From NCBI GenBank assembly GCA_964490105.1, contig CAZAZU010000003.1, positions 245-64,244 on the forward strand: DNA of 64,000 nucleotides, in the 5' to 3' direction. Origin of the DNA: an uncultured Gammaproteobacteria bacterium (lineage in GTDB: Bacteria > Patescibacteriota > Microgenomatia > Levybacterales > UBA12049). The first letter of the stretch is position 1. Each line of letters starts with the position of its first letter. The position numbers were made by a program, and so were the translations under genes. Below, piece after piece: positions 3,223 through 18,727 of the stretch. Below the pieces are notes generated by a model. That model had not been told where the DNA came from, made no database searches, and was given only the letters and a program-made list of their open reading frames with translations.

Positions 3223-5745
3223 TTAATTATTAACTACGCGAGGAATGCATGAATTGTTGCAGGCAGCCGGGGTTTGAATTTTTCGCGCATCTTCTATGTC
3301 TCCACAAAGCTTGCGATTGTTTCTGTATTTTGGATAATAGCAAAAGCAGTATGCCGTTTGCCAGGCCTCGAAATTGTTGCCAAGGCCAGCTTGAACTTTA
3401 TTGTATGAGACTGCGTTTTGAGCTTGTCTTTGCCATGGGACATCTCCCTTTGTATTTTTTTCCTCATTCCATGGCTTGAAAGGATCTACTCGTCCATTTG
3501 TGTAGCTTGAGTCCATTTGAAAATGTCCCCAGGTGTTATTACTTGATCCATATCCATTGGGGCCGTTGCCTACGGATTCGCATTGAGCTATTTTTACGAA
3601 GAAGTCTACTTTTTCCGGATCACTTTCAAAGCGAGACAATACCTGTCGTAGTTTTTCAAGAGAGAAGTTGCATAAGGGATCTCCGAAATTTGCAGCATTC
3701 ACGTTAAATCTTCTTCGGATAGTGCTCATAATACTTGCATAGTTGGCATTCCCGCAGTCGTCTGTTGTTGGCGGGCTATTTGCGCCTTCAAACAGGTCTC
3801 CGCTGTCATCAGGAGTTGAGATTTCCGCAGCGCACCCCTCAATATATATTCGATTAGTGATGGTTACGTCGTCTTCGGGGTTAATAGTTATCTTGAAAGT
3901 AAAGCTCATGGGGGCAAATCCTTTACTTGACGCTAGGTTTTCTGTTAGCTTCCATTTCACGATCGTTTCTGGATCTGAATCAATTCTATAGCTGCCAGTT
4001 GTAAGCTCAGATCCTTCTACGAGGGTTGACTGCGGCGGGATCGCATCTACGAATGTAATGTCCTCAAGATCGCATTTCGCTTCGCGTGAATCATGAATCA
4101 GCCCAATTTGATAGGTAATATTCTCGCCGTTTGATATTTCGCGAGGCCCGACCTTAAAATAAGAAATACCCGCATAAGGACTCTCTACAATAGCCTCCTC
4201 AGGTATAAGAGTATCGTCTCCTGACGGGGCAAAGAATATGGAAAAAATCGTTATAACAAGAAAAATTATTAATGCAATTAGGATTGCAAGCGGTAGGCTA
4301 ACGGCTGAAAGGGAGACGCCAATGCCTGTTAAAATTTTCGCAAGCACTATGGACGCAACACTTATAACTGTTCCTCCGATTCCTAAAATACTACCGGCAA
4401 TTGCGCTAAGCGCTGTGGTAAAAACTCCTCCGATGGCGCTGGCAACAGAGCCGATCAAGGATCTTTTAAACAAATTCAGAAGAAAATTCAGGGGATTAGT
4501 TAAGTTTTTTAATTTTTTACTAGCTAGATTAAGTCTTGAACTTAGTTTTCCAAGTTTCGTTTTTTGAAAACGTTGCCCTATCTTAGAATTGACAGCTCTG
4601 TGTTGTGCACTTGCTATTGCCCTGCTTCTAATTTGTCCCGGGGAGTAGTAGACTAATTTGCTGCGGAGAGTTTTATTGGCCTGGGGGGGCGCTGACTGAC
4701 CCCCTTTTAACGTATTCGGAGTAGTTTTATTTGCAAGAGTGTTTGGGGGTTGTGCGCCCGGTAGGGTATTAGATGGAATAGGAGTCCATGCTGTTGTGTT
4801 GGGCTGTGCTTGCTGCGAGGGGTTTAAGGGCTGGGGAATATTTGCAGTTGGATTTCTCCTAAGCGCTTTTGATAATCTGCTTTGATTTTGAATAGCTGCG
4901 GCTTCATCTCTTTGTCTTCTTCTTTCAATTGCGGCATAAAGCTCTGGGTCATTATATTTTTGCGCCCATTCTCTTGCGAGCTTTGGTGAATGTAGGGCTA
5001 TGTGGTCATGGATTTCTTCATTGGAACGAGAAATTGACATCGCTCGATCCCCGGTTCTTCTAGAAGGGTCTTTTTGATCCCATGCTTTTGTAGCGTTTGC
5101 TACATATTGTTTCCGTATTTGATCGAACTGAGCGTAGTCAAGATTTTTTCCCCTTGCGTCCCATCTGTTGATTGCCTGAGCAAGCTCCATATCGTTCGGG
5201 TTTTTACTTGCCCACTCTCTGGCCTTTTTCTCAAAATATCCCACGAGATAATCGTGTCTTTCGGCTTCCGCACGGTCATATGCCTCCTGCTGAGTGCCCG
5301 CCCTATTTGGATCTTTTTTTCTTTTTGGGTTTTTTTGAAGCTTTTTTTCCTCTTTTTCCCAGCGTTTTGCAAAAATTTCTCCGTATTCATTAGAGTGTTT
5401 CTTGAATTGCTCGTAAGTCATTTCTTTGTCTCGTAAAAGTTTTATTCCTCCAATTGTCAATCCTACCGCACCTAGTCCAGGCAGAGTAGATGATGTTTCT
5501 TTTGATGTGGAGGGTTTTGCTGATTCAATTGATATTTCAGCGCCTAAGGACCTTGCTGTTCCAAGATCTGCCCTCCCCTGCCAAAGCCCTAATGAATTTA
5601 GAAGTCCATTGTTCGTTAAGATTTTTTCGAATTCTGCAAAGTCTTTAGTTGTTAAGATTGCGTTTTGATCAGCAGGGGAGAGGTTTTCGATTTGCTTAGC
5701 AAACCATCTAGCATTCTCTATGATTAATTTTGAATCATCGGCCAT
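3223..5745 (-). CDS. Large membrane protein with C-terminal lysozyme-like (Rpf/transglycosylase-like) domain; candidate T4SS-associated peptidoglycan hydrolase (VirB1 analog)
   Basis: 840 aa. Central Gly/Ala/Ser-rich multi-TM segment (GSVASAIGGVFTTALSAIAGSILGIGG...IFLVITIFSIFF). C-terminal KIAQCESVGNGPNGYGSSNNTWGHFQM resembles the CESGGNW...GYYGGLQFS..TW transglycosylase-like motif. Lies immediately downstream of VirB4. Confidence 0.5.
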   Translation of the reverse strand: MADDSKLIIENARWFAKQIENLSPADQNAILTTKDFAEFEKILTNNGLLNSLGLWQGRADLGTARSLGAEISIESAKPSTSKETSSTLPGLGAVGLTIGGIKLLRDKEMTYEQFKKHSNEYGEIFAKRWEKEEKKLQKNPKRKKDPNRAGTQQEAYDRAEAERHDYLVGYFEKKAREWASKNPNDMELAQAINRWDARGKNLDYAQFDQIRKQYVANATKAWDQKDPSRRTGDRAMSISRSNEEIHDHIALHSPKLAREWAQKYNDPELYAAIERRRQRDEAAAIQNQSRLSKALRRNPTANIPQPLNPSQQAQPNTTAWTPIPSNTLPGAQPPNTLANKTTPNTLKGGQSAPPQANKTLRSKLVYYSPGQIRSRAIASAQHRAVNSKIGQRFQKTKLGKLSSRLNLASKKLKNLTNPLNFLLNLFKRSLIGSVASAIGGVFTTALSAIAGSILGIGGTVISVASIVLAKILTGIGVSLSAVSLPLAILIALIIFLVITIFSIFFAPSGDDTLIPEEAIVESPYAGISYFKVGPREISNGENITYQIGLIHDSREAKCDLEDITFVDAIPPQSTLVEGSELTTGSYRIDSDPETIVKWKLTENLASSKGFAPMSFTFKITINPEDDVTITNRIYIEGCAAEISTPDDSGDLFEGANSPPTTDDCGNANYASIMSTIRRRFNVNAANFGDPLCNFSLEKLRQVLSRFESDPEKVDFFVKIAQCESVGNGPNGYGSSNNTWGHFQMDSSYTNGRVDPFKPWNEEKNTKGDVPWQRQAQNAVSYNKVQAGLGNNFEAWQTAYCFCYYPKYRNNRKLCGDIEDARKIQTPAACNNSCIPRVVNN

Positions 5746-5747
5746 AG

Positions 5748-7724
5748 TTACGTGCTTTTATCAAAATCGGAAAACCCAGGAATAACTTGAGGCTGAGGCG
5801 AAGCTTGAACGCTTGAAATGCCACTATTTGCGCTCGGCTGCTGAATGGGTTGAGCGTTCAATTCTGGACCTGGTAATCCTGACGTGTTTGCAAATGAAGT
5901 ATCGTTCATTATTTTTTCCTGCTGAGCCCTTTTTAGAAGTTCCTCGGGATTTGAGGTTATTAAATTGTGCTCGAAGGGGGCCGAAAGAACCTTCATAGAT
6001 ACATGACTTTGACCTGCGAAAAATAGTCCTTCCCCGACATTTGCCGAAAGAAGAAGCTGTTTTTCTTGCTCTGAAAGATAAAAAATCTCCGATACTAGAT
6101 CAACTTCGGTAGGGCTTTGCTTTAAAAGCATTTGAATGGATGAGTTGGAAAGTATTGCTTTTCCATAGTCAGTAGAAAGAAAATCTTGAACATCTTGCGT
6201 TGCGGTAGTTAATGCTAAGTAGTATTTTCTCGCTCTCTTAGCTACCCCATGGATAAAAGAGGCTGAATCTTGGTATTTCATTAAATACCATGCCTCATCT
6301 AAAACCAATAGACGTTTTTTGAGGTCTTTTCTAACCCTTGTCCAAATAAAATCTAAGATTATATGCATGGCAACAGGGCGTAGTTGATCTTCAAGTCCCT
6401 GAGTGGAAAAAGCTGTAAGAGGATTTTTGATATCGAAATTTGATTGTTGGTTAAAGATTCCCGCCATGCTCCCTTTTATAAATTTTTCCAGCCTTAGAGC
6501 AAGATCCCTTGATACTTGATCTTCATTCCCAATCAAAACCTTATAAAGGTCTTCCATGAGGGGTGGTTCCTTGGTTTGCGTAGTTGGATCTGCGGTGATC
6601 CCCTTTTGCTTATAGGTTTCGACTAGTGCTCTGTCTAATATTGCGTCATATGAAGCGTCAAGGTCTCCCATGACTATCCTAAGAAGCGCATGAAGCGATA
6701 AGATTTTAAGACCCAACTCGTTTTCTCCCTCTTCATATCTTCCTGAAAGATCAAACGGATTAATTTTAACGGGTGAAGCTGGAGTAAACTCTATGTATTC
6801 TCCTCCCATGGTTCTTGTTAGAATTCCATATTCGCCTTCAGGGTCTATTACTATCACTTCGGTTCCAAACATAAACTGCCTCATGACCTCAAGTTTTATT
6901 AAATACGATTTTCCGGATCCTGATTTTCCAAAAACTACTTCGTTTCCGTTCTCAAGAGAATAGCGGTCGAAAATTATAAGCGAGCCGTTAAGTTGATTAA
7001 TTCCATACATTACGCCTTTGTCTTGCGTTAATGTGGCAGAAGTGAAAGGGAAAGTGGACGCAAGGGACGTGGTATCCATATTTCTGGGAAGAAATAATTG
7101 ATCTTCGGCTAAAGGAATTGTAGATTTGAATCCGTCTTCCATTTGAAGCGTGGCTGGTTTTGCTATAACAAGAATAGAGGCGAGTAGAGTCTTAAGTCTT
7201 TTAGATGCCTCATCAAGCTCGTGTTTTTCTTCCGATACTAAGGTGATGTAAAGACTGAATTGAAAGAATCTCTCAATACCTTTCGCTAGCTCTTCCTGTA
7301 CCGCGAGCGCATCTTCAAGAGCTGCTTGTACCTTAGGGTCTAAAACTTTATTGTTTTGCTGTTGCTCCATTAAGGTTGCTTCCATTTCACCAATCTTCCT
7401 TCTCAGGTCATCAAGAGCATCGGGAGATGACGTTGGATAGCAGAACATTGAGATATTTAAGGAATGATCGAAATCAATTAATGGCTCAAGCCAATTTGGA
7501 GAAACAAATCTGGGATATCCTACCACAAAAAAAGTTTTATAGAATTTTTCTCCTACGCGAATATGCCCAAAATCTACCTCAATCGATGCTGGAGCGATTA
7601 TGTCAGTAACAGAATTCATTCCCCTTTCGATTCTGTTTATCCCTGCATTTGCTGGATGAGCCGTTGCCCCAGGGATAGAATGTTGTGGGGATTGAATTGT
7701 TTTATTTTTGTTAAATAATTTCAT
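5748..7724 (-). CDS. virB4: VirB4/TrsE/CagE-family type IV secretion ATPase
   Basis: 658 aa. Walker A GKSGSGKS, DPEGEY motif, Walker B LLVLDEAWYLM, then ...TATQDVQD. Overall VirB4-like architecture. 4-nt overlap with the upstream gene. Confidence 0.85.
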   Translation of the reverse strand: MKLFNKNKTIQSPQHSIPGATAHPANAGINRIERGMNSVTDIIAPASIEVDFGHIRVGEKFYKTFFVVGYPRFVSPNWLEPLIDFDHSLNISMFCYPTSSPDALDDLRRKIGEMEATLMEQQQNNKVLDPKVQAALEDALAVQEELAKGIERFFQFSLYITLVSEEKHELDEASKRLKTLLASILVIAKPATLQMEDGFKSTIPLAEDQLFLPRNMDTTSLASTFPFTSATLTQDKGVMYGINQLNGSLIIFDRYSLENGNEVVFGKSGSGKSYLIKLEVMRQFMFGTEVIVIDPEGEYGILTRTMGGEYIEFTPASPVKINPFDLSGRYEEGENELGLKILSLHALLRIVMGDLDASYDAILDRALVETYKQKGITADPTTQTKEPPLMEDLYKVLIGNEDQVSRDLALRLEKFIKGSMAGIFNQQSNFDIKNPLTAFSTQGLEDQLRPVAMHIILDFIWTRVRKDLKKRLLVLDEAWYLMKYQDSASFIHGVAKRARKYYLALTTATQDVQDFLSTDYGKAILSNSSIQMLLKQSPTEVDLVSEIFYLSEQEKQLLLSANVGEGLFFAGQSHVSMKVLSAPFEHNLITSNPEELLKRAQQEKIMNDTSFANTSGLPGPELNAQPIQQPSANSGISSVQASPQPQVIPGFSDFDKST

Positions 7725-8383
7725 TTTACTAGCCCTGTGTTTGGTTTTGCGCCCTTAACAATGGTGTCGCTAATGCCGTCTGAGATATGGGCACCACTGT
7801 CAGAATTGTAAATTTCATAAAAAAGCCTAATGAGTTCGTTTTTTTCAAGAATTTTTGATTTTACACCTGCTCTCATGAGCTCCTGAATGACAGATTGAGC
7901 TTTTGACATAAGAAGATTTCTAGCGTCAATGATTACCGCTTGTTTATTTTTAGCGTTTGAGACGCCACTGACTCCTTTTTCGAGAAAGGAAAATGAAATA
8001 GCAATATAGAATTTTTTATCAAGCACAGACTTATCGCGAACGAGTTGCGAGACAAAATCCTTATACATATTTATTTGAGCTGCAAGATTTGGATTAAGAG
8101 CTTTTTGAGCCTGCTGTTCCAGGAGCGTTACATATGAGCTTATGTCTAATTTTCTGCTTAAAATAACAATCTGAATCGGAAAAGAAAGGGAGTTTAGAAG
8201 GGAGGCATATGAAAGAATTTTTGCCTGCTGTTCTTCGTTTGATTGTAAAGCAAAATTTGTAGCTACGATCTCCATAATCAGGCAGGCATTCCCTCCAGAA
8301 AGAATAACCATATTTTCAACAATGTCTTCGATTTCTATAAATTTTTGCGTTGTTGCAGTTATTTTCTGAGCAGAGTTTTTCAT
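7721..8383 (-). CDS. Hypothetical protein inside the T4SS-like operon
   Basis: 220 aa with no TM segment. ATGA overlap with virB4 suggests translational coupling. Confidence 0.4.
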   Translation of the reverse strand: MKNSAQKITATTQKFIEIEDIVENMVILSGGNACLIMEIVATNFALQSNEEQQAKILSYASLLNSLSFPIQIVILSRKLDISSYVTLLEQQAQKALNPNLAAQINMYKDFVSQLVRDKSVLDKKFYIAISFSFLEKGVSGVSNAKNKQAVIIDARNLLMSKAQSVIQELMRAGVKSKILEKNELIRLFYEIYNSDSGAHISDGISDTIVKGAKPNTGLVK

Positions 8384-9663
8384 TAGTTAAAAAGCTCCCT
8401 TCTTAATTCTTCTCTTGAGTCAACCGAGAGTATCTCAAGCGGCATAATAGGTGCGCCCGTAGCTTCAATTTCCACCGCATCGAATCTGTTTTGAGCTTTA
8501 GGATCTTCAAATGTGATTATGTATTTCCCGTTTGAAAGGGAGGTGGCAGCTGCGAATTGCCCAAGTCCGTTAGTTTTAAACGCTCTTACAGGGTTGTCCT
8601 GAGGATCTTTAACCTCTACGAGTATATTGGGTAAGGGATTACCTCGGGGATCCTTTACAATGCCTGTTATGAGATTTGGCTCTTGTGTGGCAGCGGGAAT
8701 TCCTATGCTTTTTTCCATTCCCGGAGGAACTTTTCTTACCCTCTGAGTTTGGGGAAGGGTATTAAGAGTTGTAGGATTAAACTTAGGTTGGGTTTGTCCT
8801 TCGAGCTTTGCCTTAAGCGATAAAAGTTCTTTTTCAAGCTCCTCTCTCTGTCTTGTAGCTTCAATTAATGCTTTTTCAAGTTCCTGAGTTTTTTGATGCA
8901 TGGTTCCAGCATTTGCGATATTAGTTTCTGTGTTCTCGAGCGCTTTTGCTTCCTCAAGCTCTTTTTGAAGCGTAGATACTTCAGCTTCGAGCTTTTTTTC
9001 GTTTTCTTCAATTTTTTCTTCAGCTTCCTCAGCTTTTGCATCAACAAGGTCATCTAGGTTCCCTGAAAGCATTGCTGGCTGAGTATTATCCGGAAGCTCT
9101 ACCACTTTGCCAGGCATATCAGTTGGAGCTTGAGTAGGCGGAGCTGGTTGAATTTGCGGTTGAATTGCCTGGATCTGAGGTGATTCTTGGGCAGGTTGGG
9201 GCATTTGCTGAAAGACTTGGAGTGGTTGTTGAATAGGCTGCTGAGCAATTGCCTGAACGGGCTGCGCCTGTTGGGGCTTAGTCTGTTCTTGCTGATTACT
9301 TAATATAATATTTTGAGGCCGAGCTTGTTGAATAGTCTGATTGGGGACTGAAGCAAGACTGCCTCCTGATTTTTTATAAATATATTGAGTTGGTGCAAAC
9401 ATAGCCTTGATTAGATTAATAATCATTACATCTAGGGGTCGTCCGTCTACGGGTATGAAGGCTAAGGCTACTCCTAATCCCAGGAACAGGAGCGCCAATG
9501 GGAGTTTAATTATAAGGAAAATAGGTAGTATAAAAAAACAAAACCATGCTAGGACAGTGCCTCCAGCTAGATATGCAAATTGCTTAACGGTCATATTGCC
9601 GATAAGCTTAAATTGAAACCCCGTAATGTCTTGCGGTATTGGATGATTCTCCATAGGCAGCAA
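8383..9663 (-). CDS. Membrane protein with two N-terminal TM helices (VirB3-like position), Q/P-rich linker, coiled coil and C-terminal CarboxypepD_reg-like beta-sandwich
   Basis: TM helices AYLAGGTVLAWFCFFILPIFLIIKLPLALLFLGLGVALAFIP. QQP-rich low-complexity region. Heptad-like EEAEEKIEENEKKLEAEVSTLQKELEEAKALE. C-terminus GIVKDPRGNPLPNILVEVKD...TNGLGQF...GKYIITFE. Confidence 0.45.
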   Translation of the reverse strand: MLPMENHPIPQDITGFQFKLIGNMTVKQFAYLAGGTVLAWFCFFILPIFLIIKLPLALLFLGLGVALAFIPVDGRPLDVMIINLIKAMFAPTQYIYKKSGGSLASVPNQTIQQARPQNIILSNQQEQTKPQQAQPVQAIAQQPIQQPLQVFQQMPQPAQESPQIQAIQPQIQPAPPTQAPTDMPGKVVELPDNTQPAMLSGNLDDLVDAKAEEAEEKIEENEKKLEAEVSTLQKELEEAKALENTETNIANAGTMHQKTQELEKALIEATRQREELEKELLSLKAKLEGQTQPKFNPTTLNTLPQTQRVRKVPPGMEKSIGIPAATQEPNLITGIVKDPRGNPLPNILVEVKDPQDNPVRAFKTNGLGQFAAATSLSNGKYIITFEDPKAQNRFDAVEIEATGAPIMPLEILSVDSREELRRELFN

Positions 9664-9789
9664 ACAAAATAACTACTAGTATCTAGTACCTATTTACTAG
9701 CTAATAGAATATAACGTGAAAAAAAGGGATTCAAGGCGATCGAAATAGATCAGTTTTAGAGAAAAATGAAGCTAATTGTGAAAACCTCT

Positions 9790-10197
9790 TTAAGGAGTAA
9801 AGCAGGATCCTGATCTGCACTGTTGGATGTCTGGGCGCGGACAATCAAAGCGATCCGTACAAGGGACACATTGGGAAAACCCAAACCGGGTTATGCAGGC
9901 CTCTCTTACTCCGGTAGCCTTTGCAATAACAGGTAAGATTATAAAAGACAAAAGAATCAAAACAAAACCAAGCACAGCGAACGTGAGAGTTTTCCTCGCT
10001 CCTTCTGCTTGCTTAGGATCTCCACCAGAGGTTACAAACTTAAATCCACTAATAATAATAAAGATAATAGCTACGAGCCCTGATAAAACCAATAACCAGA
10101 AAATAACATTTCCGACTATGACCGGGAAACAGTTGACCGTAGCGACTTGATCGCCTCCTCCTACTAAACAACCGCTATCTTTTAATGCTTGCCACAT
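9790..10197 (-). CDS. VirB2/TrbC-like two-TM pilin-like protein, paralog 1, with Cys-rich C-terminal tail
   Basis: 135 aa. Hydrophobic hairpin around the conserved TSGGDPKQAEGARKTLTFAVLGFVLILLSFI motif. C-terminal 8-Cys tail. Confidence 0.55.
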   Translation of the reverse strand: MWQALKDSGCLVGGGDQVATVNCFPVIVGNVIFWLLVLSGLVAIIFIIISGFKFVTSGGDPKQAEGARKTLTFAVLGFVLILLSFIILPVIAKATGVREACITRFGFSQCVPCTDRFDCPRPDIQQCRSGSCFTP

Positions 10198-10242
10198 AGA
10201 GTTAGCGTAACAAAGAGAGATTTAAAAAACAAGGGGAATAGA

Positions 10243-10668
10243 TTAGTCAACCAAGTTAGGGATAATGATGTTTCCTCCGGTTAGTGATCCGGCATCAAAT
10301 AGCTGTAATACGAAGTTGATGATAAAGTAGGAGACGAAAACAAGCACTAAGCCTACAAGTGCAGCTACGATCGTTCCTCTTGCAGCCTCTACTTTGCCTT
10401 TATCCCCACCAGACATAATCCATTTGATTCCTCCGTAGACTAGAAATCCGATAGCTAATATAACAGCTACTATGAATAGGATTGTTATTATATTTGAAAT
10501 CATTGGACCTACTCCATCAGCCCCAAGCGAACATAAAGCTCCAAATCTGAGTCCTCCGCCTGGATTGTCAGCGCATGGATCAATCGGACCAAAATCCTGA
10601 GCAAATGCAATTGGGGTAAGACTTAAATAAGTTGCTGTAGAAAATATTAGAGCAGATAACTTTTTCAT
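10243..10668 (-). CDS. VirB2/TrbC-like pilin-like protein, paralog 2
   Basis: Signal peptide MKKLSALIFSTATYLSLTPIAFA if the ATG at 10666-10668 is used; the ORF track's 10707 start is TTG. Hairpin with MSGGDKGKVEAARGTIVAALVGLVLVFVSYF motif. Confidence 0.55.
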   Translation of the reverse strand: MKKLSALIFSTATYLSLTPIAFAQDFGPIDPCADNPGGGLRFGALCSLGADGVGPMISNIITILFIVAVILAIGFLVYGGIKWIMSGGDKGKVEAARGTIVAALVGLVLVFVSYFIINFVLQLFDAGSLTGGNIIIPNLVD

Positions 10669-10722
10669 TAGTAATATGATCGTATGAGGTTTTGAATTGT
10701 TTGTCAAGAGGTAAATTCGAGG

Positions 10723-11178
10723 CTAAAATGCACATCCCGGTCTAGATGGATTACATTGACACCTGTATCTTCCGGTATCCGCATCTCTTCTGCATAAGGG
10801 TCTGTCTGGATTTGGACAAGTTCCAAATGTGTCACCTCCGCATCTTGAGGTGCTAGCGGGTAGATCTAAAACCTTTACTTGGAAAAGAGCAGAAACGGTG
10901 CTAATTATCATAAAAGATGCGAAACCAACTATAAGACCGATTATTGCATAGATTATTTTTTTTCTTGCCGCCTCAACTTTGTTTTTGTCTCCTTGTGATG
11001 TTATATAGGAAATACCTCCCCAAATTAGAAAAAAAAGCGCAGTCAGCGTGAGGAGTATGAACAACACTGTCATTCCGTTTGAGATAAGACTAAGAAGGGT
11101 TTCGTCTCCTCCTGATGGCATTCCCATAATAGGGTCAATTCTTTTTCCGCCAGGTAGCGCTAATGCAATTTTTTCCAT
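10723..11178 (-). CDS. VirB2/TrbC-like pilin-like protein, paralog 3, with Cys-rich C-terminal tail
   Basis: Hairpin with TSQGDKNKVEAARKKIIYAIIGLIVGFASFMI. C-terminal Cys-rich CGGDTFGTCPNPDRPLCRRDADTGRYRCQCNPSRPGCAF. The track's N-terminal 11 aa (MIFWDYLDLDN) is read-through into the 349-bp repeat, so the start was trimmed to the ATG at 11176-11178. Confidence 0.55.
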   Translation of the reverse strand: MEKIALALPGGKRIDPIMGMPSGGDETLLSLISNGMTVLFILLTLTALFFLIWGGISYITSQGDKNKVEAARKKIIYAIIGLIVGFASFMIISTVSALFQVKVLDLPASTSRCGGDTFGTCPNPDRPLCRRDADTGRYRCQCNPSRPGCAF

Positions 11179-11179
11179 A

Positions 11180-11528
11180 TTATCTAAATCCAGGTAGTCC
11201 CAGAATATCACGGGTTATTAATTCAAGTAAAGCTAAGGAGAATATTATGAACAGAAGTCCAACTATCGCTGCGGTTAGTTGATCTCTGGCATTCTTAACT
11301 TTCTCAGGATCTCCCTGGGAAGTCATCAGCTTATATCCTGCAATAATTATGATTATTATTACTATTCCTCCGGAAATGCTTAAAACAAACCCAAGCATCC
11401 ATCTGGTAAATCCAGCTGAATCTGTTCTCACAAATCCGATTGCTGTTTTAATCTTTGTACACCCCTTAGCATCTGTATATGATGATCCATTCTTAGCACA
11501 AGGAAGGGAGAGAGGGTCATTTTGTTGA
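11180..11528. repeat. 349-bp direct repeat, copy A (3' end of pilin paralog 4 plus the junction)
   Basis: Appears identical, on reading, to 12141-12489. Encodes the shared C-terminal pilin module. Confidence 0.85.
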
Positions 11529-12097
11529 AGAGTCGTATCGCTTTCATAATCAGTATGAAAGCCTGGGACATCTCCCTCAGCAAAAGGCCTACAGAGGGGT
11601 GTTTTTGAGTCAGAGTAAGCCTTAGAGGTCATTTGATAAAACTTGCCATCTGCTGGATCCTTAAATACGCAGTAATTCATACTACATAGATTGCCTAGGC
11701 CTTTTCTGCACTGGTCATTGCTCGTGGTGCATGTGTCGCTAGCGTTTAGTTCACAGCGGTCTGTTTCGTCTGGAACATCTCTCACCTCACATCCTCTATA
11801 TGCATTTGCGCTACATATTTGATCATCTGGGCATGGTGAGGGAGGGTTTGGGTTAGGCGCTCGTTGTTCGCTTGAGCATTCGAAAGCCGTTTGGCTTGGA
11901 TTGCAAACCACATCGTCATTAACATATACACATTTCCAAACTCCGGCATCGTTATAAGGGTGTGCAGTTTTTCCGCTTACTCGAGGGCATGTAAAGCAAT
12001 CGCTGCCATTGCCTCGAGCGGCAAATGATGGATTTGATCCAAGTGCAAAAAGTAGGAAAAAAAATATAGGGACGAGAATTGTTAATATTTTTCTCAC
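11180..12097 (-). CDS. Secreted Cys-rich ectodomain fused to a C-terminal VirB2-like pilin module, paralog 4
   Basis: GTG start in frame at 12095-12097 gives signal peptide VRKILTILVPIFFFLLFALGSNPSFAA. About 20 Cys in the ectodomain. The C-terminal 116 aa are identical to paralog 5 (YKLMTSQGDPEKVKNARDQLTAAIVGLLFIIFSLALLELI). Confidence 0.55.
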   Translation of the reverse strand: MRKILTILVPIFFFLLFALGSNPSFAARGNGSDCFTCPRVSGKTAHPYNDAGVWKCVYVNDDVVCNPSQTAFECSSEQRAPNPNPPSPCPDDQICSANAYRGCEVRDVPDETDRCELNASDTCTTSNDQCRKGLGNLCSMNYCVFKDPADGKFYQMTSKAYSDSKTPLCRPFAEGDVPGFHTDYESDTTLQQNDPLSLPCAKNGSSYTDAKGCTKIKTAIGFVRTDSAGFTRWMLGFVLSISGGIVIIIIIIAGYKLMTSQGDPEKVKNARDQLTAAIVGLLFIIFSLALLELITRDILGLPGFR

Positions 12098-12140
12098 AAC
12101 TTTATCGTAGGTAAAACTTAGAGGAATTGCAAGAAAGGGG

Positions 12141-12489
12141 TTATCTAAATCCAGGTAGTCCCAGAATATCACGGGTTATTAATTCAAGTAAAGCTAAGGA
12201 GAATATTATGAACAGAAGTCCAACTATCGCTGCGGTTAGTTGATCTCTGGCATTCTTAACTTTCTCAGGATCTCCCTGGGAAGTCATCAGCTTATATCCT
12301 GCAATAATTATGATTATTATTACTATTCCTCCGGAAATGCTTAAAACAAACCCAAGCATCCATCTGGTAAATCCAGCTGAATCTGTTCTCACAAATCCGA
12401 TTGCTGTTTTAATCTTTGTACACCCCTTAGCATCTGTATATGATGATCCATTCTTAGCACAAGGAAGGGAGAGAGGGTCATTTTGTTGA
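12141..12489. repeat. 349-bp direct repeat, copy B (3' end of pilin paralog 5 plus the junction)
   Basis: Appears identical to 11180-11528. The copies are 961 bp apart. Confidence 0.85.
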
Positions 12490-13535
12490 TATCTGATACT
12501 GCTAACGCAGCCCTTTCCTTGTATGCATCTAAGGTTATTTCTTTCATTACAATAACCTTTGCTTTCCGGCATCGCTTCATCTCCTGACGGCGTAACGCAC
12601 TTACCATCATTCCATGTGTCAGTGCTTTTGCATTTATAACATGTATTTCCGAAGTCTTCGGGAGCTTCTTTGCAAGTTCCCGTAAGAGCATCTCTGCCGT
12701 TTTTATCACAAATTAAATTGTCGCAGCAGCTGCCCTGACTGCCTGCATTACCGCTACAGGTTTCCCCTTTATTATTGCAGAAGTCGGGTGGCGGATAGCC
12801 TTTTGGATATGCGCAGTATGTTCTAATTTCATTGCCCTTTCTGTTATTACATCGTGGACCAGGCCCCGATCCGCACACATTGCCAATTCCCTGAACCTCC
12901 TTGCAGTCATGAGTGCTTTTAGGGCAATTAGGATCTCTATTAGCGCACCAATCTCTTTCAGAGTCAGGGGTAGTACATCTTCCTTCTCCGGCAACACATC
13001 TTGTTCCTTGGGCAGAGCAATCAACTCTTGAAACAGGGTCTCTTAATTCGCTTCCCTTTACGCATAGATCTGCTGCGTTGCTCCATGTAAATCCCGAAGC
13101 GCATCGGGGACAGCTTTGGGGCGTTGCGGGGATTGGATTTGTTGCTGAGCAGTCAGCAGCAACCACATCTGGTCCTGGAGTGAAGCCTGCGGTTTGGTCG
13201 CTGCAGCCATGGTCAAACCCTCCGCCTATATCGCACTTGGAAAGTGTCCAGCTGATTGTTTTTCCTTCCTGGCTTTTTGAAACGTCAATCGTGTAGGGAG
13301 AAGATGTTATTCTGGTTTCCGGTATGCCCGTAGCGTTAAATTTCCAAAAGTAGCTATTACTATCTGCCGTAGAGTATGTCCATTCAAACTTAATTCTGGA
13401 AGTTTCATTGTCTGGTCCCCCACAAAACGGGTTAGCTCTAAGGTTTTGTGGCGGATTGGGAATTGCGTGTGCGACTTCTGGTAAAAAAAATACCATTGCA
13501 AGAAAATAAATAACTAAGATCAGAATTTTTCTCAC
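12141..13535 (-). CDS. Secreted large Cys-rich ectodomain fused to a C-terminal VirB2-like pilin module, paralog 5
   Basis: GTG start with signal peptide MRKILILVIYFLAMVFFLPEVAHA. More than 40 Cys in the ectodomain. C-terminal 116 aa identical to paralog 4. Shares a 27-bp 5'-end block and the 349-bp 3' block with paralog 4. Confidence 0.6.
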   Translation of the reverse strand: MRKILILVIYFLAMVFFLPEVAHAIPNPPQNLRANPFCGGPDNETSRIKFEWTYSTADSNSYFWKFNATGIPETRITSSPYTIDVSKSQEGKTISWTLSKCDIGGGFDHGCSDQTAGFTPGPDVVAADCSATNPIPATPQSCPRCASGFTWSNAADLCVKGSELRDPVSRVDCSAQGTRCVAGEGRCTTPDSERDWCANRDPNCPKSTHDCKEVQGIGNVCGSGPGPRCNNRKGNEIRTYCAYPKGYPPPDFCNNKGETCSGNAGSQGSCCDNLICDKNGRDALTGTCKEAPEDFGNTCYKCKSTDTWNDGKCVTPSGDEAMPESKGYCNERNNLRCIQGKGCVSSIRYQQNDPLSLPCAKNGSSYTDAKGCTKIKTAIGFVRTDSAGFTRWMLGFVLSISGGIVIIIIIIAGYKLMTSQGDPEKVKNARDQLTAAIVGLLFIIFSLALLELITRDILGLPGFR

Positions 13536-13571
13536 AACTTTATCGTAGAAGAATAAAATTCGATTTGCAAA

Positions 13572-14879
13572 TTAGGAAGAGAATTTAAAGCCTCGGCCTT
13601 TTATTGTTTGGATGTGCGTAGGAGAGTTAGGGTTTTCCTCGATTTTTTTTCTTACCCTAAAAATTAGCTGATCTAAGGCTTGCTCAGTTACTCCTGCGGT
13701 CGAAGCTTGATCTCCCCATACGCTACTGATTATCTCGTCTCTCTCTAAGATTTTTTCAGGGTTTAAGGCTAAGAATTTAAGCAACTTAAACTCTGAGGAT
13801 GTTAATCCTTCAGATAGGATGAGATTGCCTTTTATTATTTCATTTGTTGACTCATCATAGATAATCTCATTTTTGGCGTTTTTAAGTTCATTTTTTGCAA
13901 ATTCTTCTAAAAGGGGAACAGCAAATTTATTATTTTTGACTAAGTCTATTGCCACTAGATGGCTTGATTCGGTAGCGTCTTCCTTAGCAATTAGATTTTG
14001 CTCAAACGGGGTAAGGGATTTCCAGATTTCTGTTAAAACTGCCTTAACTCGCGTATTTGATAAAAGAAATTCTTTAATGTTCTTTTTAACCCCTTCATTG
14101 ATGCACGCTTCAGTACTTACAAGCCATAGTTTTCCCAAACCGCCGGTAACTTTAATAATTTCATCAAGAGTAGGTTGATTAATAGTTTTGTCTGTAGATT
14201 TTTTAATATAGCTTAACCTAAAGTTTCTAATTTTCTCATCTCCTAGCGAGAGATAGACTAAATTCCCTACTAAAAATTCATAAAAAGTTGATAAAACGTC
14301 ATGCCCTATTGTTTCCTCAAGCGGGCGATTAAGGGGAAAAACACAAGAAAATCTGTATTTTGCTCTGTCTCTTAATACTTTTAAGTTTTCAAAAAATACA
14401 GGCTCAACTACGCCCACATATTCTTCAAATTTGTCAAAAAGAAGAACTATGGTTAATTCCTTATGTAAGCATAAATAGTCAATTGTTTTTTTAAATCCTT
14501 GAAAAATTACTAACTCATCGCCTGATTTTAAACTCTCATCTAAGATTGCTTTGGTAAACTTATATTCTTCGTTCAGTTTTCTCTCCTGTAGGGAATCTAC
14601 GAGCTCTAAAAACATGTATTTAGTAGAATCAGACAGCGGTCTTTTTTTAATCTCAGAAAAATTTAGCATTACGAAATGGAACCATTTTTGATTTTCTCCC
14701 AGATGAAGATGACGCGCCTTTGTGTTATATGCAAGAATTCGAAGCACGTTACTTCTCCCAACACCGGGAAGTGAAATAACTTGTGCTGAATTACCACTTT
14801 TAATATAGGAAATTATTTTTCCTATTTCTTCTTTTCTGGAATCCGGCGGGTAAAGTGATTCAAAGTGCGTAGGTTCCAT
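13572..14879 (-). CDS. Putative transcriptional regulator: N-terminal ATPase-like domain plus C-terminal OmpR/PhoB-type winged helix
   Basis: C-terminus LSEGLTSSEFKLLKFLALNPEKILERDEIISSVWGD...TEQALDQLIFRVRKKIEENPNSPTHIQTIKGRGFKF matches the Trans_reg_C pattern. N-terminus has a degenerate P-loop-like LPGVGRSNVLR. First gene of the minus-strand block. Confidence 0.55.
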   Translation of the reverse strand: MEPTHFESLYPPDSRKEEIGKIISYIKSGNSAQVISLPGVGRSNVLRILAYNTKARHLHLGENQKWFHFVMLNFSEIKKRPLSDSTKYMFLELVDSLQERKLNEEYKFTKAILDESLKSGDELVIFQGFKKTIDYLCLHKELTIVLLFDKFEEYVGVVEPVFFENLKVLRDRAKYRFSCVFPLNRPLEETIGHDVLSTFYEFLVGNLVYLSLGDEKIRNFRLSYIKKSTDKTINQPTLDEIIKVTGGLGKLWLVSTEACINEGVKKNIKEFLLSNTRVKAVLTEIWKSLTPFEQNLIAKEDATESSHLVAIDLVKNNKFAVPLLEEFAKNELKNAKNEIIYDESTNEIIKGNLILSEGLTSSEFKLLKFLALNPEKILERDEIISSVWGDQASTAGVTEQALDQLIFRVRKKIEENPNSPTHIQTIKGRGFKFSS

Positions 14880-14950
14880 AGCTTTGGTTATTTAATTGTA
14901 AGTGTTTTATAAGGTTTTTATCAAGCTCGTAGGAGTGGTTTGACTTAAAC

Positions 14951-17900
14951 TTGCTCCATATGACACAGGAAATTCTTACAGGATCCATTCAACAGATTCA
15001 GGGTAAGCAAATTGAATTGACAGTAAGAAGCATAAATCCTACACTGAATAGAGGGGGAGAAATCTTTATGTCAGACGCTGGAATTAATACTGAAGCACCA
15101 CAAGCCGTAAGACCTGTCGCAACAAGCGGGGAATTACCTGCTCTTCCGAGAGCGGGGGGGATGTCTCTTGAAGGATTGACTCCGGCTCAACAAATTGATG
15201 CCAAAAGAACTATAAAGCTTATTGAGGATCTAGGTTTTAAGCCAAAAGAAGTGACTTCTAAAGGTAGAACTGAGCAGACGGCTCAGTCAGTTGTTGAAAA
15301 TGCAGGCTTAGATAGTCAGGATCCAGTAGTTTTAAAAAGATCTCGCGATTTAGCAAATAAAGAAGATTTAACAGCAGAGGAGACTGCAGAACTACTTCAA
15401 GCAAATTCTGGGAGAATTTCAAAAGCAGAAGAGTTACTTAAGGAATCATTAGGCAGAGAATTAACTGATGCTGAGAAAAAAGCAATCTTAAGAGCTCATT
15501 TTGTGGGATTTGGTGAAAAAGGAAAAGATGAAAAAAGAGACTCTGGTGTATTTAATGTAAGCCAGGAGCAGTTAGCGGAAAAAGCAAGAATTCTTAAGGA
15601 TGCAGGTTTTGATAAAGAACAAAGACGAGAAATCATAGAATCAGGTCTTGCTGCAGGTGCTCCTCCAGCTCCAGCTAATCCCATGGATGCAAGAAATCAG
15701 GCAATTGCCGATCTGGCTAATCTAAATCTTACGTTAAAGCTTGCTGATATTAGAGACAAAATATTGGCCTTACATGCAGAAGCACAAGCGGGCAATCAAG
15801 GAGCTGGTCTAGTGCCAAATCCTGATGGAATATCTTCTGAGACATTTGATGCTATCTATAAAGGATTTTTTGAAAGAGTAAAAAATGTCTTGAACATGCC
15901 AAATCCCCCCGTTGAGGTTTTAGCACTTGAGCAGCAACTCAAGCAAATAAAAGATCTAGATGACAGAACTCACGAGCAACGAGGACCGCAAGAGAATTTT
16001 ATAAATGAATACGACTTTCTAGTAAAACAGCTTGTAGATGTTGGGCCAAATAATCCTCAGAGGCAGCAGTTTGAGCAAATGCTCGTAGATAGGGTTGTGG
16101 CATTTACCGCTTCTGGGGTTAATCCTTCAAATGACAATATTTACGATATGACTTTAAAGAGAATTATTCAAACAGATGTTTTAGTGTCGAATCCTGTACT
16201 ACAAGAGCAGGTGAGATCGGCGCTAGATAGATTGGTGGTTAGAATTGTAGGATTACCACTACAATCTGATACGGGAGATTTTGACATCGGATTTTATGGA
16301 GGAATTAATTTTGCCTCTATAAAAAATCTTTTACTCTCTATGTCTCAGGACCCATCATACTTTGAAACTAGAGAGATACGCAGGTTATATAGCCAAATGA
16401 ATCTAACAACAAGAGATGCGTATGTACAGTTTAGAGATACAAGAAGAGACCAGAATCTTAATGTGGGATCAAAATTTGAAGCAATGAGAATAGTCCATGA
16501 GTTAAATAAAATGATTGTTCAAAATCAGCTTGATGCTGCTAACCAGGCAGCGCCTCAATTAGGGCCTGAGTATGTTCAGGCATTGTCTAAGTCAAAAGGA
16601 GTTGCATCTGTATTCAGGATTATGGAGTCTGGAATTCTGGATCTTATGGCTAGAGATGGATATATGGCCAAAGGCAGATATGATGCATTAATGGGTAAAG
16701 CACAAAGTCAGGAAACTGGAAGATTTGATAACTCAGGAAATGCATCTATTGTTAAGCAGATTAGAAAAATGCAAGAGCAGCTGGGATCATTGCCGCAAGG
16801 TGCTCAAGCAGGATTAACTCAAGACATGAAGCAATTACTCCAGATGGAAGATTGGGAAGTAGACCTAGCATTTAATTTGGGAAGAAATCTTTATAACATT
16901 TTACATAGATCTGCTGAGCTATCTTCATGGGGAAGATTGCCAAAAGGACTTAAGGCATTTACAAATTCCGTATTTGGAGGATTTAGAAATATTTATAACC
17001 CTGGACTCCATGTTCTAGAAAGATTTAAGCCAGGCGCAGGCAGAGGAGGATATAGATTATTTGAAATGTTTATGGATGCAATGCAAAGACGAAGAAAAAC
17101 TATGGAAGGTTACGGAGACATGAATTTGGAGCAGGTTAGGGGCGACCTTATTAAATTCTTTGAGCTTCCTTCTATCGCTGGCCAAAGAGGATTTATTTCT
17201 TCATGGAAAGCAAATGAGGGAACCCTAACAATGGTGGAAACTAATTTTACCCCACAGGGTATTTTCGGTCAATTCGATATACATTCCCAAATGCACCTAG
17301 AGGAAGATGGATCAAAAATTTTTGATAGAGCTACAGGGATTGTGCCGGGTAGAGGCATTGGTCATTTCCTGGATACAGATGCGTTAACTTTCATTAATAG
17401 CGCAGGGGAGCAGTTTGAATGGGGTAAGCTATCAGATGGGCAGAAAGCTGATTATTTCAGATCTTTATTTTTTGAACCCGGAACGGGAGGCCACGGACAT
17501 GACCCAGTGTTAAGACGGGATATAAATATTGGATTAGGGGTAATTTATAAAACCGCGCTGGGGCCAGCGGGGGGGCATCATGGGCATGAAAGTCATCACC
17601 TCAATGAAGTTAAAGAACAAATAAGGAGATTGATATGGGAGCGCGCTGCTGAAGAAAATCCACTTGCAGTTTTGCCTTATCTACATAAGCTTAAATTTAG
17701 CGCCGATCATGCGCCTGTTACTGTAGGGCAGGGGCCTCAGGCAAGAACAGAGGTTGTGGCAGGAAAAACCTTACTTGCTGATGTGTATCAAGCACCAGTA
17801 ATGAGCGATTCCAAAGTAAAATTCATGCTGCTAAATGAGTGGAGAATGTCAAAGATTAAGGAAGGGAATCTCAACTACACTTTAGTTGATGCTATAAATG

Positions 17901-18727
17901 AGATTGATGCATCAATGGGAGTACAGAGAGATCCTATTACGCACGCTATAACCAATCAAGTCGCCGTTATGGGGCTTAGTCTCACTCAAGAAGAATATGA
18001 ATTATACGATAGGATTGTTGAGAGCGCAAAATTAGCATCTAGAGATATGGCAAATGTAAGGTATGGCTTTGTGGCATTTGCGAATGATCTTCCTTTTGAA
18101 AAAGAGAACTTTGATGTTTTGGGAAATAACGCATATCAAAGGCACTTCGGAGATGTGGTTCAGATAAATAGCTCAACACAAGCTATGATAGACGCATTTG
18201 ACAATCTTGGTACAGTAAAAGATTTTCATGGAGTGGTCGAGGTTGTGGGTAAATTTGAAAAAGGAATTACTGCAGTTCATGGGGATGCTGCAGCCAAAGA
18301 TAAAGCAGCTCCTTTAGTAGAGGCTATTACAAGATTTTTTAGAAGAGGTGAGAATGCAGGTGGAGAAAAATTCGTTGAAGAGGATAAAAAAGGCCCAATG
18401 GCTAAAATGAAAAGATATTTTAGGCAATGGGACGAGGTGCATTCAGTCTTGCAACAGTTTCATAAAGCAAACTCTATCGCTCAGCAGGAATATAATGTTG
18501 AAGCATTGGCATTAGATAGGCATCAGATTTACTTACTTCAGGAGGAGTTGATGGCAAGTGGATTTATGGGGCATGATCAGGAAGAGGAGTTTAGGAAAAA
18601 CTTTGGAGGGTTCTTGGGTTTTATAACAAGAATGATGCTTGAAGGATTCTTAAGGACTGGAAAATTATCTACGATAATAACAGCGAGAGGTTTGTTGGGG
18701 AGTTCATTTAAAGGTGCAATTGAATAA
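14951..18727 (+). CDS. Large soluble hypothetical protein (1258 aa), divergent from the regulator. The real start may be the internal Met at about 15069
   Basis: Long uninterrupted ORF with no TM segment. Helical, charged N-terminal third. His-rich motifs GGHGHDPV and GGHHGHESHH near 17490-17600. Confidence 0.5.
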   Translation: MLHMTQEILTGSIQQIQGKQIELTVRSINPTLNRGGEIFMSDAGINTEAPQAVRPVATSGELPALPRAGGMSLEGLTPAQQIDAKRTIKLIEDLGFKPKEVTSKGRTEQTAQSVVENAGLDSQDPVVLKRSRDLANKEDLTAEETAELLQANSGRISKAEELLKESLGRELTDAEKKAILRAHFVGFGEKGKDEKRDSGVFNVSQEQLAEKARILKDAGFDKEQRREIIESGLAAGAPPAPANPMDARNQAIADLANLNLTLKLADIRDKILALHAEAQAGNQGAGLVPNPDGISSETFDAIYKGFFERVKNVLNMPNPPVEVLALEQQLKQIKDLDDRTHEQRGPQENFINEYDFLVKQLVDVGPNNPQRQQFEQMLVDRVVAFTASGVNPSNDNIYDMTLKRIIQTDVLVSNPVLQEQVRSALDRLVVRIVGLPLQSDTGDFDIGFYGGINFASIKNLLLSMSQDPSYFETREIRRLYSQMNLTTRDAYVQFRDTRRDQNLNVGSKFEAMRIVHELNKMIVQNQLDAANQAAPQLGPEYVQALSKSKGVASVFRIMESGILDLMARDGYMAKGRYDALMGKAQSQETGRFDNSGNASIVKQIRKMQEQLGSLPQGAQAGLTQDMKQLLQMEDWEVDLAFNLGRNLYNILHRSAELSSWGRLPKGLKAFTNSVFGGFRNIYNPGLHVLERFKPGAGRGGYRLFEMFMDAMQRRRKTMEGYGDMNLEQVRGDLIKFFELPSIAGQRGFISSWKANEGTLTMVETNFTPQGIFGQFDIHSQMHLEEDGSKIFDRATGIVPGRGIGHFLDTDALTFINSAGEQFEWGKLSDGQKADYFRSLFFEPGTGGHGHDPVLRRDINIGLGVIYKTALGPAGGHHGHESHHLNEVKEQIRRLIWERAAEENPLAVLPYLHKLKFSADHAPVTVGQGPQARTEVVAGKTLLADVYQAPVMSDSKVKFMLLNEWRMSKIKEGNLNYTLVDAINEIDASMGVQRDPITHAITNQVAVMGLSLTQEEYELYDRIVESAKLASRDMANVRYGFVAFANDLPFEKENFDVLGNNAYQRHFGDVVQINSSTQAMIDAFDNLGTVKDFHGVVEVVGKFEKGITAVHGDAAAKDKAAPLVEAITRFFRRGENAGGEKFVEEDKKGPMAKMKRYFRQWDEVHSVLQQFHKANSIAQQEYNVEALALDRHQIYLLQEELMASGFMGHDQEEEFRKNFGGFLGFITRMMLEGFLRTGKLSTIITARGLLGSSFKGAIE

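Follow-up and report, generated by a model that had tools for sequence, protein, structure and literature searches.

Ectodomain-fused pilins with an identical hairpin in a type IV secretion system array of Candidatus Levybacteria: candidate host-recognition subunits

Five tandem pilin genes near virB4

The DNA analysed here, referred to as the window, is a stretch of 64,000 nucleotides (nt) (GenBank assembly GCA_964490105.1, contig CAZAZU010000003.1, positions 245 to 64,244), which at 9790-13535 carries five open reading frames (ORFs), p1 to p5, lying head to tail on the minus strand in a type IV secretion system (T4SS) gene cluster. A first-pass annotation of this locus had proposed five tandem VirB2/TrbC-like paralogs that share a two-helix hairpin, and both points were borne out, as all five proteins exceed the cut-off of the Pfam family PF18895 (T4SS_pilin) and the hairpin with its motif is visible in an alignment of all five. 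Close relatives of the window's VirB4 and p5 come from metagenome-assembled genomes (MAGs) of Candidatus Levybacteria/Levyibacteriota, and judged by sequence the source organism is itself a Candidatus Levybacteria MAG (Patescibacteria, or candidate phyla radiation, CPR). Related genome loci that were compared with the window are labelled L001-L031; array layout was compared in 15 related loci, 51 family members were aligned, and long members were examined in sets of 125 and 126.

Three of the genes encode short pilins and two encode long ones, with the most likely start codons read from the DNA. p1 (9790-10197) encodes 135 amino acids (aa) from ATG 10197, with two cysteines (Cys) before helix 1 and a six-Cys tail after helix 2; orthologous genes at this position in relatives have tails of 4-16 Cys. 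p2 (10243-10668; 141 aa from ATG 10668 within ORF 10243-10707) consists of a signal peptide, a two-Cys neck and the hairpin, and by this layout is a “bare” version of the long pilin type. p3 (10723-11178; 151 aa from ATG 11178 within ORF 10723-11211) has no signal peptide, and its hairpin is followed by a C-terminal tail with six Cys, so that the Cys-rich tails ascribed to paralogs 1 and 3 in the first-pass annotation are indeed present with six Cys each. The long p4 (11180-12097; 305 aa from GTG 12097, the ORF being open to 12172) and p5 (12141-13535; 464 aa from GTG 13535) both start with a signal peptide, followed by a Cys-rich ectodomain of about 190 and about 350 aa, respectively, a neck and the hairpin. 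This is the order predicted for them earlier, whereas the predicted 20-40 or more ectodomain Cys was too high, as the whole proteins contain 16 and 30.

The curated gathering cut-off of PF18895 is 26.6 bits (whole-protein score), and p1 to p5 score 33.9, 36.4, 37.8, 33.0 and 33.3 bits (E 2e-9 to 6e-8). The same profile matches all 51 aligned relatives, and by these scores membership of p1-p5 in PF18895 is established. Each protein has two hydrophobic segments with hydropathy peaks of 2.5-3.2, and between the two helices the alignment shows the common motif [ST]-x-G-D-x-x-K-[VA]-x-x-A-R. p4 and p5 are 100% identical over a module of 116 residues, to which p1-p3 are 24-34% identical. Cys totals are even in all five (8, 2, 6, 16 and 30 from p1 to p5), and every Cys lies outside both helices and the loop, in segments predicted to be extracytoplasmic; the cytoplasmic VirB4, with 658 aa, has one Cys for comparison.

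The NCBIfam model NF045849 (Mbov_0395 family pilin-like conjugal transfer protein) also matches p1-p5, with 31.8, 23.7, 32.2, 39.1 and 37.2 bits (E 4.5e-10 to 2.8e-5); its equivalog cut-off of 40 bits is reached by none, and on these scores they are related to this family and not equivalogs of it. The first-pass annotation had considered that the hairpin might fall into a different family, such as holins, with no T4SS linkage. No PHROG phage family, holins included, matched any of p1-p5 at E ≤ 0.01, and linkage of the array to VirB4, PrgI and TraC-like genes is seen in the window as well as in over 20 other genomes. An AlphaFold2 model of the neck-plus-hairpin module (predicted local distance difference test, pLDDT, 83) has two small beta-hairpins followed by helices at module residues 38-70 and 75-110 (33-36 residues). 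Fold searches with this module gave a shape not separable from thousands of other helical hairpins, and sequence and profile searches of solved structures with the hairpin found no pilin. Homology of the hairpin to classical VirB2 is likely.

Unrelated ectodomains on one type of hairpin

In p5, the signal peptide (residues 1-24) is followed by a beta-sandwich resembling fibronectin type III (Fn3) domains at about 27-105, two Cys modules at 138-191 and 295-347, the two-Cys neck and the hairpin at 386-457. The N-terminal sandwich has Foldseek matches to Fn3 domains with a probability of up to 0.99 and E values of about 0.03-0.1, and we assign the Fn3-like fold tentatively. The two Cys modules are copies of a six-Cys unit of about 50 aa (C-x2-C ... 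W ... C ... C ... C-x5-C), recognised with a hidden Markov model (HMM), which is present in 13 of 126 long pilins and, in the dataset compared here, never occurs without the hairpin. Outside the hairpin, Pfam (E ≤ 1), NCBIfam and PHROGs detected no known domain in p4 or p5; recognisable Fn3 or SdrD_B domains occur in the pilins of a few relatives.

The ectodomain of p4 is unrelated to that of p5 (no BLAST match), and both are rare. Homologues of the p4 ectodomain numbered two among 5.8 billion proteins, namely itself and one Levybacteria protein, and that of p5 yielded 11 cluster representatives among 1.84 billion. The architecture as such is conserved among relatives: a query with p5 returned 164 proteins, of which the best 120 are all long PF18895 proteins. 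In the 15 related loci the array opens with one or two long pilins (266-522 aa), and three or four short pilins follow, a layout conserved across Levybacteria; in distant relatives long members of 760-799 aa occupy the same array position. The number of Cys is even in 107 of 126 long family members.

The first-pass annotation had proposed comparing ectodomain variability among relatives, and this variability proved to be high. When 125 long members with hairpins at least 50% identical to those of the window were cut at the hairpin and their N-terminal parts clustered, 49 unrelated ectodomain clusters were obtained on one type of anchor, and ectodomains are replaced between otherwise collinear genomes, as described below. 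Between orthologous ectodomains, dN/dS is 0.06-0.15 and dN amounts to some 2.5 times the VirB4 value; by these ratios the ectodomains are under purifying selection and the genes are real.

The ectodomain meets the neck at a sharply conserved junction, Q-x-N-D/E-P-L-S-L-P-C, where the exact repeat described in the next section also begins. Such a boundary would fit proteolytic processing, in which the ectodomain would be a pro-region or cargo cut at the neck, either freeing a soluble disulfide-rich effector, toxin or signal or acting as a long leader that is removed to leave a small pilin. In VirB2, TraA and TrbC propilins the leader that is removed is unusually long, TrbC and VirB2 are also trimmed and cyclised, and small Cys-rich modules are common in secreted effectors. 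Nevertheless, we regard processing as improbable, as the cluster yielded neither a protease gene nor a recognisable cleavage motif and p2 already consists of signal peptide, neck and hairpin without an insert. Furthermore, 49 unrelated ectodomain types with a common anchor are more suggestive of display or recognition than of a leader.

An identical repeat encodes the anchor of both long pilins

The neck, hairpin and stop codon of the two long genes lie in two copies of a 349-nt minus-strand repeat, copy A in p4 (11180-11528) and copy B in p5 (12141-12489), which are 100% identical to each other. A second exact repeat of 24 nt, also on the minus strand, spans the GTG start codon of p4 (12087-12110) and of p5 (13525-13548). 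It is expected 0.00 times by chance and marks the 5' edge of the replaceable cassette. The first-pass annotation had noted neither the identical hairpin repeat nor the replacement of ectodomains between genomes, which are the most informative features of the locus.

As the window is part of an 83-kb MAG contig, the repeat and with it the second long pilin could be an assembly artefact, i.e., a collapsed or duplicated repeat, and an independent assembly of identical sequence does break exactly at the repeat. This ENA contig is identical to the window over 11,318 nt and stops exactly 139 nt inside the repeat, 139 being the k-mer size of the assembler. A break at k inside the repeat is however the signature of a true repeat with two contexts, where a de Bruijn graph branches into two continuations. 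In addition, two long pilins with hairpins 85-100% identical and unrelated ectodomains recur in L003, L025 and L015, which were obtained in other studies, and both window genes are intact, with orthologues under purifying selection. It is therefore very improbable that the repeat is artefactual.

Within one genome, the hairpin DNA of the two long pilins is 100% identical in the window and in L003, 98.5% in L025 and 85% in L015; the same modules compared between genomes are 75-86% identical. Orthologous ectodomains link the window to L003 for the p4 type (78% aa identity, dS about 1) and to L025 for the p5 type (80%), and the second L025 ectodomain matches an L007 ectodomain. Since ectodomains are orthologous across lineages, the pair of long-pilin genes is older than the lineage split. 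The hairpins nevertheless group by genome, which argues for gene conversion and not for recent duplication. These observations indicate that the hairpin modules are homogenised by gene conversion, a case of concerted evolution.

Two adjacent short pilin genes in L028 (9636-9835 and 10047-10246) have a 200-nt stretch in common with 94% identity, which suggests that homogenisation of hairpins is not confined to the long pilins.

Cassette replacement between collinear genomes

Regions collinear with the window, otherwise about 78-80% identical in DNA, were compared by blastn. In the comparison with L003 the alignment is interrupted between 13525 and 12489, in that with L025 between 12090 and about 11521. 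In both cases the breakpoints fall at repeat ends, that of the 24-nt repeat on one side and that of the 349-nt repeat on the other, and by these alignments the segment replaced is only the ectodomain plus most of the signal peptide, between fixed flanks. Lateral transfer of p4 between the window and L003 lineages was considered as well, on account of a dS of about 1 against saturated dS in VirB4, and found no support, as blastn identity is uniform at about 78% across the region.

Diversification of the ectodomains by a diversity-generating retroelement (DGR) was also weighed. DGRs are common in CPR genomes, and in several relatives Avd-like four-helix-bundle genes (PF05635, with weak matches to PF22296, bAvd) lie right after a long pilin or elsewhere in the array. 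Those near the long pilins of L028, L030 and L031 prompted the idea of a DGR for the window, which was rejected. The window has no Avd-like ORF; a simple motif (regex) screen of the ORFs of the window and the loci revealed none resembling a reverse transcriptase (RT), and none was seen among the window ORFs scanned against Pfam, a scan that was not exhaustive; and neither L028 nor L030 has an imperfect repeat of the template/variable (TR/VR) type. Moreover, only exact repeats occur in this region of the window, and they cover the conserved hairpin instead of the variable part, and the orthologous ectodomains show purifying selection and not hypermutation. For this window we consider a DGR very improbable.

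The PF05635 genes themselves (“23S rRNA intervening sequence protein”, 106-170 aa) occur inside or beside the arrays of relatives, often right after a long pilin, and are not accompanied by an RT or a TR/VR pair. They were found in L028 (8512-8832), L030 (3390-3758), L031 (2469-2837), L006 (3284-3667) and L026 (7340-7720), and also in L009, L012, L015, L021, L018 and L024.

The T4SS neighbourhood

The array genes lie 2.1-5.8 kb from virB4 on one strand, with intergenic gaps of 1-126 nt. Directly downstream of the pilins, a PrgI/VirB3-like T4SS membrane protein is encoded on the minus strand at 8383-9663 (PF12666, 41.6 bits), with a C-terminal CarboxypepD_reg/Ig-like domain (PF13620). At 426 aa it is unusually long, and it runs from the PrgI membrane domain through a Q/P-rich stretch and a charged, coiled-coil-like stretch to the CarboxypepD_reg/Ig-like end, a domain layout that suggests a surface-reaching extension. 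It is followed by a TraC-like protein of 220 aa (7721-8383, minus strand; PF26593) and by the VirB4-type T4SS ATPase (5748-7724, minus strand; PF19044 E 3e-28, AAA_10, DUF87). The TraC-like protein matches NF045975, the VirB4 model of Mycoplasma integrative and conjugative elements (ICEs), at E 5e-11, far under the cut-off of this model, and aligns to 97-278 of its 894 positions; its stop codon overlaps the VirB4 start. The two appear to represent a VirB4 divided into separate N-terminal and ATPase proteins.

Downstream of virB4, three further minus-strand genes encode proteins of 840 aa (3223-5745, 10 Cys), 272 aa (2366-3184, 6 Cys) and 189 aa (1794-2363, no Cys), and dnaN comes after these. 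None of the three proteins has a Pfam or NCBIfam match; hydrophobic segments or a signal peptide are present, and they are probably divergent T4SS components of the VirB6/VirB8 type. VirB5, VirB7, VirB9 and VirB10 were not found in the cluster. In the L001 contig, the sequence of which is identical to the window, dnaN lies right after the T4SS cluster and dnaA adjoins; by synteny with L001, dnaN of the window was assigned to ORF 675-1790.

A scan for promoters and terminators over 9500-15100 gave matches at or under chance level and no convincing terminators. Given the gaps of 1-126 nt and this lack of terminators, the array, the PrgI/VirB3-like gene, the TraC-like gene and virB4 are consistent with co-transcription as one operon. 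Upstream of p5 by 36 nt lies a minus-strand gene (13572-14879) for a 435-aa protein with a C-terminal winged helix of the OmpR/PhoB type (PF00486 E 7e-20), a candidate for a dedicated regulator of the array. Winged-helix proteins of this kind (435-462 aa, no receiver domain detected) are also kept beside the array in L028 (4786-6120) and L029 (8595-9983), and the gene has the same orientation as the array in the window and is divergent in L028. A plus-strand ORF of 1258 aa without a Pfam match (14951-18727) lies divergent from and upstream of this gene and is kept in L003, L007 and L025 by blastn. About 35 kb from the T4SS cluster, a 786-aa protein encoded on the plus strand (48819-51179) carries the T4SS coupling-protein domain TrwB_AAD_bind (E 2.8e-9), and by this match a VirD4-like ATPase exists in the genome, unlinked to virB4.

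The array and its T4SS neighbours are alike in the 15 related loci and in the distant relatives L028 and L030. In L017-L024 (Shapirobacteria, Woykebacteria and Doudnabacteria), a locally built hairpin HMM found no pilin array within 10 kb of VirB4, and their pilins may be located elsewhere or be too divergent. Many MAG records titled “uncultured Gammaproteobacteria bacterium” (L002, L004-L008, L011, L015, L019, L023, L025-L027) encode a VirB4 58-92% identical to that of the window, with 83-92% in the eight closest and about 58-79% in the other five, and a pilin array of the Levybacteria type was detected in L004, L006-L008, L011, L015, L025 and L026, where the flank was present, with the HMM. 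The titles of the closest records, at least, suggest mislabelled taxonomy.

Relation to known pilin systems

Tandem arrays of VirB2-like pilin genes near virB4 and dnaA have already been published for Patescibacteria (PMC10633639, Cell 2023; PMC12102498, Microb Genom 2025), and the five-pilin array itself is an ordinary case of this kind and not new. Quinonero-Coronel et al. 2025 surveyed 3,035 genomes and reported 441 VirB2 arrays of 2-11 pilin genes each, which are particularly frequent in Microgenomatia, the class of the Levybacteria, with a mean pilin identity within arrays of 25% and a maximum of 54% (PMC12102498). The remark in the first-pass annotation that typical T4SSs have one VirB2 is generally true; in Patescibacteria, where such arrays are known, the multiplicity is no surprise (PMC12102498; PMC10633639). 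In the cultured Saccharibacterium Southlakia epibionticum, Wang et al. scored the array SEML1_0014-0019 as essential for epibiotic growth on the host by transposon sequencing (PMC10633639), and its members are small PF18895 proteins of about 127-190 aa, with gene lengths of about 380-420 nt (PMC10633639 supplement). A 2025 review restates the published points on Patescibacterial pilin arrays. In the literature searched on these arrays, we found no mention of ectodomain fusion, concerted evolution or cassette replacement of such pilins.

The window resembles the published arrays in its PF18895 pilins with weak PF04956 matches, in tandem genes by PrgI/VirB3-like and VirB4 genes near dnaA/dnaN, and in a monoderm-type machinery similar to the mating-pair formation (MPF) class MPF-FATA without a relaxase nearby. 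It differs from them in that the published pilins are small and divergent, whereas two here carry Cys-rich ectodomains of 190-350 aa, and in the hairpin module of p4 and p5, which is 100% identical against the published within-array maximum of 54%.

Classical mature TrbC, VirB2 and TraA pilins are single hairpins of about 7 kDa. The pilins of the window share with them two hydrophobic helices, a short basic loop, a predicted N-out/C-out topology after Sec insertion and neighbours of the VirB3 and VirB4 type. In contrast to these systems, the window encodes five paralogues rather than one, the proteins bear Cys-rich tails or large N-terminal ectodomains, and there is no outer membrane. The hairpins also align to nearly the whole 80-position NF045849 model of Mycoplasma ICE proteins, which likewise belong to T4SSs of wall-less or monoderm cells, and the TraC-like neighbour resembles the N-terminus of the ICE VirB4; however, the ICE proteins are small and borne on mobile elements, whereas the window system is chromosomal and adjoins the replication origin.

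FimH and PapG, the tip adhesins of chaperone-usher pili, have an N-terminal receptor-binding domain fused to a pilin domain, and type IV and type II secretion system (T2SS) filaments have bulky minor pilins at their tips. The likeness to these would be one of design principle only, that of a variable N-terminal domain on a pilin domain that fits the lattice. Membership in either group is excluded, since they use Ig-like donor-strand exchange or type IV pilin helices and the window proteins have a VirB2-type hairpin.

Genes for pilus subunits have also been amplified in tandem, and diversified, in the T4SSs of the host-associated Bartonella (Trw; virB2/trwL, trwJ) and Anaplasma where, according to the account given in PMC12102498, this is proposed to vary surface recognition or antigenicity. 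In those systems, whole small pilins and VirB5-type tip proteins diverge, whereas in the window the pilin module is constant and the fused ectodomain varies.

Possible roles of the long pilins

At a probability of roughly 0.55, we favour the reading that p1-p5 are pilin-family subunits of a chromosomal, origin-proximal T4SS and that the long ones are two-domain pilins for host recognition, a function we infer. The hairpin would insert into the membrane in the manner of VirB2 and TraA, its basic loop facing the cytoplasm and its two ends the exterior. This N-out/C-out topology is predicted because of the Sec signal peptide and the K/R-bearing loop, and it would place the Cys-rich parts outside the cell, in a setting that permits disulfide bonds. 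The short paralogues would make up a T4SS pilus or a channel-associated fibre or extension, and the long ones would join the same lattice via their identical hairpin and expose a disulfide-stabilised ectodomain. Owing to the bulk of this domain and the promoter-proximal position of their genes, the long pilins may be sparse or tip subunits, in line with the adhesive tip or minor pilins suggested in the first-pass annotation, a role that is plausible, with an architecture analogous to that of two-domain tip adhesins of the FimH type, and their ectodomains may recognise surface structures of the host cell. Homologous recombination within the two flanks, of 24 nt on the 5' side and 349 nt on the 3' side, would swap the cassettes and keep the anchor uniform, so that recognition could change while assembly is preserved.

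Several points weigh against this reading. We know of no pilus seen for any Patescibacterial T4SS, and polymerisation is an assumption for the entire PF18895 family. PF04956 (TrbC/VirB2), the other family relevant to the pilin profile search advised by the first-pass annotation, matches p4 with 17.8 bits (E 0.004), p5 with 14.4 bits and p1-p3 not at all, and its cut-off of 27.9 bits is not reached; matches at E ≤ 0.1 in 25 of 51 family members (best 2.9e-4) suggest distant homology to TrbC/VirB2 and not membership. The AlphaFold modelling that had likewise been advised yielded the tentative Fn3-like N-terminus of p5, but the model of the whole protein is of moderate quality only (mean pLDDT 64, predicted template modelling score 0.29). 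At the strain level, a metagenome scan with the hairpin module returned nothing closer than about 80%, and thus none of the near-identical strains in which cassette exchange within a population would be visible. Finally, a 35-kDa domain on every subunit would crowd a VirB2-type lattice.

Crowding of the lattice by large ectodomains would not arise if the long proteins were not lattice subunits at all, and the main alternative, which we hold to be less likely, is that they are membrane-anchored surface proteins. The hairpin would then be only an anchor or a docking module for the T4SS, with the ectodomain acting in adhesion or in an envelope-spanning channel of a monoderm cell. T4SSs of the Gram-positive MPF-FATA type, to which Patescibacterial VirB4 is related, generally have no pilus (PMC12102498; PMC10633639), and fold comparisons do not single out a VirB2-like pilin. 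On the other hand, the long proteins have a hairpin of the same family as the neighbouring short paralogues, which have no ectodomain, and one signal-anchor helix would be enough for anchoring. The identical hairpin in both long copies likewise fits a common assembly interface better than a generic anchor.

Taking the two-domain pilin as the preferred reading, a broader proposal can be put forward more tentatively, and we hold it at somewhat less than even odds. A VirB2-type pilin may have been made into a two-domain adhesin, with a hairpin socket kept uniform by gene conversion and disulfide-rich domains exchanged at the flanks, and the repertoire of these domains may be the primary determinant of the host to which the cell attaches or from which it feeds via the T4SS. 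If so, these would to our knowledge be the first natural pilins of the VirB2 family with a fused receptor-binding domain.

What is new here is confined to the ectodomain-fused pilins, their homogenised anchor, and the swappable putative recognition domains with their evolution. Patescibacteria, which live attached to other microbes, account for a large part of bacterial diversity, and the T4SS with its pilin array is essential for this lifestyle in the one tractable species. The long pilins, each with its own surface domain of fast turnover, are candidates for host recognition and specificity that can be read from sequence, and their anchor may be useful as a natural display scaffold. They illustrate how a fibre subunit may vary its recognition end while recombination fixes its assembly end.

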